Of a stretch of 64,000 nt of DNA, positions 47,090 through 47,644 are shown one piece after another. Below the pieces are notes generated by a model. The model saw nothing but the letters and a program-made list of their open reading frames with translations, was not told the DNA's origin and made no database searches. Each line of letters starts with the position of its first letter. Position 1 is the first letter of the stretch. Source of the stretch: Escherichia phage EC.P1; sequence record PQ657772.1; one strand, 5' to 3'. Made by a program: the position numbers and the translations under genes.

Positions 47090-47327
47090 ATACTAAATTG
47101 GAAAAGTGTTCAGTACTGGAATATTTTGCTAAATCTGTTATATGGAAGTAGACATCTTTGAAATTATCATTCTCAAATGTCGTTATTTGTAAACAGTGTG
47201 TGGGTCTGAAAATATAATAATAAAATATATCATCTTCAGTCACAACTGTATGGTTTTTGTAGCGTTCAATTTTTTTCATGTGTGAATAATTTCTTTGACC
47301 CCATATTCCATAATTGCCAACGTACAA
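47058..47327 (-). CDS. hypothetical protein
   Basis: 89-aa ORF. Confidence 0.45.
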   Translation of the reverse strand: MYVGNYGIWGQRNYSHMKKIERYKNHTVVTEDDIFYYYIFRPTHCLQITTFENDNFKDVYFHITDLAKYSSTEHFSNLVFVYCIPNHNM

Positions 47328-47644
47328 ATCTCACAAGGCTTTGCAGGGACTGGAATACCATCTTTACTTACCCGTGCAATCAACAAAGTATGAACTTCAG
47401 CACGAGAAGCCAGCAAACATGAGATTTCAGCATGAAGAAATTCACCTTGTGGACGACCAGCACGGATTGCAAAACCTTTCTGTACTGGGTGAGTATGTGT
47501 GTAAGAATTAGTACGTGTTGCCAATACACGACCTTTCTTATCTAGTGCACGAGCAATCACACGATAACGTTTGTAGCTCCCCACTTGCTCGATGGGTGGC
47601 ATCCGTCGTAATTCTTCAATTAGTTTCTCAAGTTTACGATTCAT
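47276..47644 (-). CDS. small cytidine-deaminase-fold protein (zinc-dependent deaminase-like)
   Basis: 122 aa; HAEISCLL and PCEICTLAI, the H[AC]E...PCxxC signature. Confidence 0.5.
   Translation of the reverse strand: MNRKLEKLIEELRRMPPIEQVGSYKRYRVIARALDKKGRVLATRTNSYTHTHPVQKGFAIRAGRPQGEFLHAEISCLLASRAEVHTLLIARVSKDGIPVPAKPCEICTLAIMEYGVKEIIHT

Follow-up and report, generated by a model that had tools for sequence, protein, structure and literature searches.

A predicted 122-residue zinc deaminase of a jumbo coliphage, its distinct and nearly exclusively viral clade, and transfer RNA as a candidate substrate

The mini deaminase gene and its family

In this work we describe a small gene, here termed the mini deaminase gene, in a stretch of 64,000 nucleotides from Escherichia phage EC.P1 (sequence record PQ657772.1), referred to below as the window. 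The source of the window is a jumbo coliphage of the Asteriusvirus-like type, and over the 3 kb around the gene the identity is 97.8% to Escherichia phage Turkey3 and 87% to phage 121Q. An earlier note had pointed to a small stand-alone protein with a deaminase fold and HAE and PCxxC motifs at 47276..47644, and to a second, canonical deoxycytidine monophosphate (dCMP) deaminase at 57978..58454 from which it is distinct. Both proteins were found as described, the former through its open reading frame (ORF), its motifs, a match to Pfam family PF00383 and an AlphaFold model judged by its predicted local distance difference test (pLDDT), and the latter as a 158-residue product with a far stronger match to the same family. 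The two genes lie 10.3 kb apart, and the features on which the analysis rests are as follows:

47276..47644, minus strand: mini zinc deaminase coding sequence, 122 amino acids (aa), ATG start and TGA stop; supported by matches to PF00383 and PHROG 174, an AlphaFold model with pLDDT 91, and synteny
47426..47434, minus strand: codons for H71-A72-E73, the predicted zinc-ligand His and catalytic Glu at the start of helix 2, read from the sequence
47324..47338, minus strand: codons for P103-C104-E-I-C107, with the two predicted Cys zinc ligands at the start of helix 3, read from the sequence
47438..47509, minus strand: N-S-Y-x-K-T-H-P-x-Q family motif and Cys-free insert, from conservation and a modelled helix at residues 53-61
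47339..47374, minus strand: R91 at the end of strand 3 and a 10-residue insert between strand 3 and PCxxC (residues 91-102), from conservation and a short hairpin in the model
57978..58454, minus strand: canonical dCMP deaminase, 158 aa, a separate unit; PF00383 E=4e-22, phrog_174 E=6e-62

The 122-residue protein has the sequence MNRKLEKLIEELRRMPPIEQVGSYKRYRVIARALDKKGRVLATRTNSYTHTHPVQKGFAIRAGRPQGEFLHAEISCLLASRAEVHTLLIARVSKDGIPVPAKPCEICTLAIMEYGVKEIIHT. Its ORF is a genuine gene under purifying selection and not a chance ORF, since its codon differences from the counterpart in 121Q (gp490) comprise 41 synonymous and only 7 non-synonymous changes, and homologues are present in 195 phage records. 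A distant counterpart is gp260 of phiKZ (PHIKZ260). Among the phages that carry the family are jumbo phages (Asteriusvirus, RaK2, GAP32/CBB-like and Eneladusvirus), phiKZ-like phages, Salicola SCTP-2, Aeromonas phages of ~120 kb, Xanthomonas phage DES1, Cobetia phage Carin-5 and Synechococcus myoviruses.

At E<=1e-3 a profile search covering 1.84 billion cluster representatives returned 4540 proteins, of which 1092 also pass E<=1e-10; the 150 top-scoring ones are all 96-166 aa long. The family-wide alignment proved too diverse for locus mining and sub-alignments were used instead; scans of IMG/VR with three pattern sets confirmed 121, 444 and 202 relatives. In 185,579 cellular species genomes only two loci were found, both on contigs of metagenome-assembled genomes, in a scan with one narrow peptide pattern that does not prove absence. 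PCxxC is present in 197 of 198 collected family proteins. The length of the tail that follows it is bimodal, with about half of the members stopping right after strand 4 and about half carrying a further 10-15 residues, and helix 1 is also absent in about a third of the family, such members starting at strand 1.

Conservation was computed over 150 diverse homologues. The zinc ligands and the fold, on which the earlier note had staked its proposal, both held up: His71 is conserved in 99% and both cysteines (C104, C107) in 100%, and the deaminase fold is predicted at pLDDT 91. E73 is likewise invariant (100%), with A72 at 96% and P103 at 99%. Beyond the site itself, N46 (99%), R91 (98%), H52 (93%), P53 (91%), Q55 (88%) and G96 (84%) are retained, a basic residue is found at position 50 in 88% and at position 102 in 72% of members, and the family signature can be written as N-S-Y-x-K-T-H-P-x-Q ... 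L-H-A-E ... R ... A-K-P-C-x-I-C.

Fold, active site and clade assignment

The match of the 122-residue protein to PF00383 scores 26.2 bits, just over the cut-off of 25 (E=7.7e-6), and that to PHROG 174, named 'dCMP deaminase', reaches 1e-11. PDB sequences searched with the single sequence gave nothing significant, and searches of NCBIfam and PADLOC gave no usable match. An AlphaFold2 model built from a 20-sequence alignment (pLDDT 91; predicted template modelling score 0.84) shows a confident deaminase fold, comprising a helix at residues 3-14, strands at 28-34 and 40-45, the insert helix at 53-61, a helix at 72-80 with HAE, a strand at 86-92, a short hairpin, a helix at 105-114 with PCxxC and a final strand at 118-121, the protein ending at T122, one residue past strand 4. 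The three-layer alpha/beta/alpha arrangement and core strand order 2-1-3-4 of the cytidine deaminase (CDA) superfamily are present in this model, together with the motifs of that superfamily, [HC]xE in helix 2 and PCxxC in helix 3, as H71-A-E73 and P103-C-E-I-C107. A 134-aa relative was also modelled (pLDDT 92) and has an antiparallel beta4-beta5 hairpin in place of helix 4, and a structure search of BFVD returned only unnamed viral proteins of like size.

On motifs and model, the protein is best read as an active zinc-dependent hydrolytic base deaminase with C or A as its base. Zinc would be held by His71, Cys104 and Cys107, with Glu73 serving as the proton shuttle and Asn46, at the end of strand 2, making the usual substrate contact, and the zinc-activated water would attack C4 of a pyrimidine or C6 of a purine. 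The modelled scaffold is reduced to four strands, without helix 4 and strand 5, and two inserts that are specific to the family are predicted to flank the pocket, bearing the conserved residues K50, H52, P53, Q55, R91 and K102.

To place the protein among deaminase clades we used the synapomorphies given by Iyer et al. 2011, Table 1 (PMC3239186). Here the separation of the two window proteins made in the earlier note is at its clearest: the 158-residue enzyme has every mark of the dCMP deaminase clade (C20, N41-G-T-P44, H85-A-E-M-N-A, T103-L-Y-T-T107 and Y128/Y132), its structural-zinc residues being C20, C50, C51 and H55, and the 122-residue protein has none. Neither the insert (residues 47-69) nor residues 15-27 contain a Cys that could bind the structural zinc, as is also the case in the family consensus, and the only cysteines of the protein are the catalytic pair and C76. 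In place of NxxP the protein has N46-S-Y-T, with the first Pro at +7; in place of HAE-x-NA it has HAE-I-S-C, position +2 being variable in the family and +3 being Ala in 81%; strand 3 reads T86-L-L-I-A90 where TxxxT is expected; and the chain ends at T122, ahead of any helix 4 or Tyr after strand 4. Judged by these motifs and the model, the mini deaminase does not strictly qualify as a dCMP deaminase, and it is probably not merely a spare one.

The family as a whole forms, as far as its sequences can tell, a distinct and nearly exclusively viral clade of the CDA superfamily, since it combines an HxE-like core with a C-terminus that either forms a hairpin or is missing, possesses two family-specific inserts and shows none of the marks of the dCMP or TadA clades. 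The mini deaminase is thus a distinct clade of a known superfamily, and the gene is already annotated in GenBank relatives, where the name in use is 'dCMP deaminase'; automatic database names are inconsistent, ranging over dCMP deaminase, TadA and hypothetical. In the paper on phage CBB 'two CMP/dCMP deaminases' were noted and both were assumed to make deoxyuridine monophosphate (dUMP) (PMC5259590), and the RaK2 and phAPEC6 papers each list one CMP/dCMP deaminase. Whichever substrate is favoured, over 1000 protein clusters currently bear names ('dCMP deaminase', 'TadA') that lack support. The literature searched yielded neither a functional nor a comparative account of the mini family.

A related case of naming concerns phage Sharanji, in which gp491 (WNN14772.1; locus L175, 12857..13336) is annotated as a 'tRNA-specific adenosine deaminase' and is so discussed in PMC11895373. 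This protein was considered as a homologue of the mini deaminase and rejected, synteny with Turkey3 and fEgEco12 identifying it as the homologue of the 158-residue enzyme. Its TadA name is probably a mis-annotation, because the homologous 158-residue protein has all of the dCMP-deaminase clade motifs.

Charge, genomic context and the candidate substrate

Members of the family are strongly basic, with a median isoelectric point (pI) of 9.59, 96% of members above 8.5 and a median net charge of +9; the window protein itself has a pI of 9.84 and a net charge of ~+9. Canonical dCMP deaminases from phages (n=80) have a median pI of 6.43 and a net charge of -1 (Mann-Whitney p=1e-32 versus the family). 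This difference leans, circumstantially, towards a nucleic-acid substrate.

Genomic context was examined in 235 viral loci with flanks of at most 10 kb; clustering at 70% identity grouped them into 84 lineages. A transfer RNA (tRNA) gene was found in the flanks of 32 of the 84 lineages, within 2 kb in 20, within 1 kb in 12 and abutting the deaminase gene (<=52 nt) in 5, and the tRNA genes near the mini deaminase all lie on its strand. Random gene placement in the same loci gave 10.05 +/- 2.5 lineages within 2 kb (P=0.0005 for the observed 20). In control loci of canonical dCMP deaminases, mined alike, 7 of 41 had any tRNA gene and a single one had it within 2 kb (Fisher odds ratio 12.5, p=0.0018 for family versus control at 2 kb). 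The signal was found in 12 of 31 superclusters defined at 60% identity. Charge and tRNA-gene linkage together lean to the nucleic-acid option among the roles suggested in the earlier note.

Several individual loci deserve mention in their own right. In DES1, ARAGORN predicts a tRNA-Arg(UCU) that is absent from the GenBank annotation, 382 nt upstream of the deaminase on the same strand (locus L089, 23734..23809, minus strand). A tRNA-Ser(ACU), which would have A34 in a split codon box, occurs in Sharanji at 95470..95561 (locus L176, 13471..13562) and likewise at 9112..9201 of locus L038, an unrelated 85-kb viral contig that also carries a mini deaminase; such a tRNA is unusual in bacteria and phages. 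The mini gene is followed by a canonical 145-aa dCMP deaminase gene with overlapping coding regions in L024 (10007..10749, an overlap of 4 bp) and L056 (7619..8399), and in L024 an array of 17 tRNA genes together with a gene resembling transfer-messenger RNA (tag ANDEVFALAA) begins 1.5 kb downstream. All-against-all clustering of ORFs within 4-6 kb revealed no conserved protein partner in more than 4 of 34 or more than 8 of 84 lineages, the two largest clusters being antisense shadows of the deaminase gene itself. A canonical dCMP deaminase gene lies within 10 kb of the mini gene in 11 of the 84 lineages and is directly adjacent in two.

In the window, the mini deaminase gene is flanked by two further ORFs:

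47641..48267, minus strand: upstream ORF, 208 aa, phrog_16370, function unassigned; its stop overlaps the deaminase start at an ATGA junction
47058..47279, minus strand: small ORF downstream, 73 aa; ATGA junction at which its start codon overlaps the stop of the deaminase

Because ATGA overlaps are found at both of its ends, the mini deaminase gene is read as the middle cistron of a trio that is predicted to be translationally coupled. The 208-aa ORF is kept beside the mini deaminase in Rak2-like phages only, and a family search with the 73-aa product gave no match. The trio lies within a long leftward early/metabolic block with nrdD/nrdG, thymidine kinase, PhoH, NUDIX, Sir2, a MazG-like gene and the second deaminase, in a phage whose G+C content is 35.8%. 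Of these genes nrdD/nrdG are 1.6 kb away, NrdD being a class III anaerobic ribonucleotide reductase of 610 aa encoded downstream of the deaminase at 43803..45635 (minus strand). Farther along this strand, relatives encode a Sir2-like deacylase beside NUDIX hydrolase and PhoH genes (locus L006, 28345..29645), an arrangement that recalls NAD/ADP-ribose metabolism. At 49069..50040 (minus strand), 1.4 kb from the deaminase, a 323-aa protein has a C-terminal WGR domain (Pfam PF05406, E=1.3e-10), the remainder giving no family match; WGR domains are best known in PARP-type sensors of nucleic-acid breaks. A predicted protein of 119 aa (46688..47047, minus strand), which goes by 'HrgC' in 121Q and Ecwhy_1 and by 'HqrC' in phage UB, has phrog_4915, function unassigned, as its sole match. 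Terminator-like hairpins with T-runs at 45748..45859 and 48274..48296 (minus strand) flank the deaminase gene block, three separating the block from nrdD and one immediately ahead of the 208-aa ORF, and 8 such sites were counted in 5 kb versus 2.4 expected from shuffles. These hairpins may bound a transcription unit from ~48280 to ~45750.

We tentatively favour, with something short of even confidence, the reading of the mini deaminase as a polynucleotide deaminase for which tRNA is the prime candidate. Its substrate would be a base within a polynucleotide, most likely a tRNA of the phage or the host, rather than free dCMP, because the net charge is about +9 and relatives are repeatedly encoded in or beside phage tRNA clusters. 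The expression of PHIKZ260 early in infection, from a primary transcription start site of its own (PMC8244752), also counts for this reading. The mini enzyme would act non-redundantly alongside the allosterically regulated canonical dCMP deaminase and would not be its replacement, since the two co-occur both in this phage and within 10 kb in the 11 lineages mentioned above.

A number of observations weigh against a tRNA substrate. A search of the window for tRNA genes found none, and the tRNA cluster of Sharanji, a related phage, lies ~195 kb from the mini deaminase gene. Strand 5 and the two C-terminal helices (Glu, Phe) with which TadA meets the anticodon loop are absent. A TadA-like role on A34 was tried and rejected, as A34 tRNAs are not enriched nearby (6/129 versus 3/54 in controls), as was a specific partner tRNA, the neighbours being mostly Arg-UCU and Met-CAU, the commonest phage tRNAs. 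It may also be that tRNA genes and small accessory genes cluster through genome organisation and not through function. When PDB was searched with the family profile, the best matches were dCMP deaminases, from S-TIM5 (8.7e-11), S. mutans (3e-8) and human (2e-6), with a Mycoplasma tRNA deaminase at 1.4e-8 coming after S-TIM5. Finally, DES1 and Aeromonas phage PhAER-3, both with complete genomes, encode ThyX and have no deaminase of the CDA fold besides the mini enzyme, a combination that would fit a supply of dUMP; this pattern is weak evidence, because many phages carry ThyX without any deaminase.

The last two points also speak for a rival that we consider possible if doubtful, in which the protein is a minimal, non-allosteric deaminase of cytosine nucleotides, converting dCMP, deoxycytidine triphosphate or 5-modified dCMP to the uracil or thymine nucleotide and so feeding deoxythymidine triphosphate (dTTP) synthesis. 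It would then be a constitutive back-up to the regulated canonical enzyme, pushing the deoxynucleotide pool of an AT-rich phage towards dTTP. Membership of PHROG 174, the apparent operon fusion with a canonical dCMP deaminase gene in two lineages, and the position 1.6 kb from nrdD/nrdG in a block with thymidine kinase, NUDIX, MazG-like and dCMP-deaminase genes are all in keeping with this, as are phage dCMP-deaminase relatives with shifted substrates such as 5-methylcytosine (5mC) (bioRxiv 10.1101/2024.12.05.627091) and the C5-cytosine methyltransferase encoded by phAPEC6 (PMC7247149). Against it stand the lack of any dCMP-clade synapomorphy, including the Tyr-containing segment after strand 4, and a positive charge so extreme as to be unlike that of phage dCMP deaminases. 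Such an enzyme would, moreover, be redundant with the canonical one here and in at least 11 other lineages, and canonical dCMP deaminases show no linkage to tRNA genes. A 'second dCMP deaminase' is the weaker reading because of the basic charge, the tRNA linkage, the loss of dCMP-clade features and the frequent co-residence of the two enzymes. Should the protein nonetheless prove to be an unregulated deoxycytidine-nucleotide deaminase, this would explain why many large phages have two 'dCMP deaminases' and would mean that the fold works without helix 4, strand 5 and structural zinc.

We regard as improbable an action on single- or double-stranded DNA as a cytosine deaminase, or another role in host takeover or anti-defence that would alter host or competitor nucleic acid or defence RNA or DNA. 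Truncation after strand 4/helix 3 is otherwise typical of the nucleic-acid toxin clades YwqJ, XOO_2897, BURPS668_1122 and Bd3614, and the very basic charge, the early expression of the phiKZ homologue and the activity of some phage dCMP-deaminase relatives on single-stranded DNA (ssDNA) in vitro would agree with such a role; however, the PADLOC search gave no match, the gene has no conserved uracil-DNA-glycosylase inhibitor or immunity-like partner beside it, and an uncontrolled DNA deaminase would harm the phage genome too. Very improbable, in our view, is a non-catalytic or accessory subunit, for example in a hetero-oligomer with the canonical dCMP deaminase as ADAT3 forms with ADAT2, since the family hardly varies at the three zinc ligands or at the catalytic Glu, a residue missing from Tad3, and in DES1 and PhAER-3 the mini enzyme has no canonical partner.

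Returning to the polynucleotide reading, a bolder version of it, which we hold to be rather unlikely, would make the family the first phage-encoded RNA or tRNA base editor, self-sufficient at ~100-120 residues and recoding or protecting tRNAs during infection. It could, for instance, change a base of the anticodon loop, enabling phage or host tRNAs to read phage codons or to evade host anticodon nucleases. Phage tRNA genes are known to counter tRNA-targeting defences, and no phage tRNA-editing enzyme was described in the literature searched. If this were true, the mini deaminase would be the smallest natural nucleic-acid deaminase of the CDA fold and hence of interest as a compact base-editor module; a family acting on tRNA or RNA would also represent a new layer in the reprogramming of translation by large phages and offer a natural deaminase scaffold of very small size (95-125 aa).

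Relation to known deaminase systems

Of the TadA/Tad2 features, the mini protein lacks EPCxMC, the Glu that precedes strand 1, strand 5 and the pair of C-terminal helices. Its own motif reads A-K-P-C-E-I-C (family consensus AKPCxIC), and the NCBIfam TadA model gave no match to it at E<=1. The Asn of strand 2 that TadA would require is present (N46, 99%) but does not discriminate, being common to several clades. The CDD/CDA clade and blasticidin-S deaminase usually have CAE and PCxxCR, and the mini protein has HAE, acceptable for CDD/CDA, and no PCxxCR, C107 being followed by Thr and not Arg; strand 5 is again absent, the NCBIfam cytidine deaminase model TIGR01354 reaches 12.8 bits where its cut-off is 113.65, and the longer relatives share the hairpin of this group.

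With the truncated toxin or predicted RNA-acting clades (YwqJ, XOO_2897, Bd3614 and MafB19-like; Iyer et al. 2011) the mini protein has the loss of strand 5 in common. Pfam MafB19-deam is touched by 63 of 150 family members and Bd3614-deam by 8 of 150. For the window protein the MafB19 model (PF14437) scores 13.3 bits against a cut-off of 27, and it is not discriminating, as the canonical 158-aa enzyme scores higher (57.6 bits); of the MafB19 features N46 and G115 fit, and the basic residue stands at -2 instead of -3. Features resembling YwqJ are His52 (93%), the insert at 92-102 and the truncation, but the stretch F69-L-H-A-E does not have the Gly of GxHxE, Pfam YwqJ was not matched even at E<=10, and no delivery or immunity context surrounds the gene.

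A study from New England Biolabs found phage 'dCMP deaminases' (mSCD-B5 and relatives) with unexpected substrates including 5mC and ssDNA (bioRxiv 10.1101/2024.12.05.627091). These are full-length versions of the dCMP-deaminase fold whose genes are linked to those for thymidylate synthase. mSCD-B5 has 154 aa, a prototypical dCMP-deaminase fold and a thymidylate-synthase homologue beside its gene; the mini family is shorter, truncated and without linkage to thymidylate synthase, ThyX lying within 10 kb in 2 of 84 lineages. The dCMP deaminase/ComEB clade (T4 Cd, S-TIM5 dCD and human DCTD), source of the best profile match among solved structures, has in common with the mini family the HAE and PCxxC site and the Asn at the end of strand 2, and is likewise encoded by phages amid nucleotide-metabolism genes. 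Relative to that clade the mini protein is without strand 5 and helix 4, and hence without the hexamer and allosteric elements, and it is set apart by the extra insert before PCxxC, by the linkage to tRNA genes and by a pI of 9.8 versus ~6.4.

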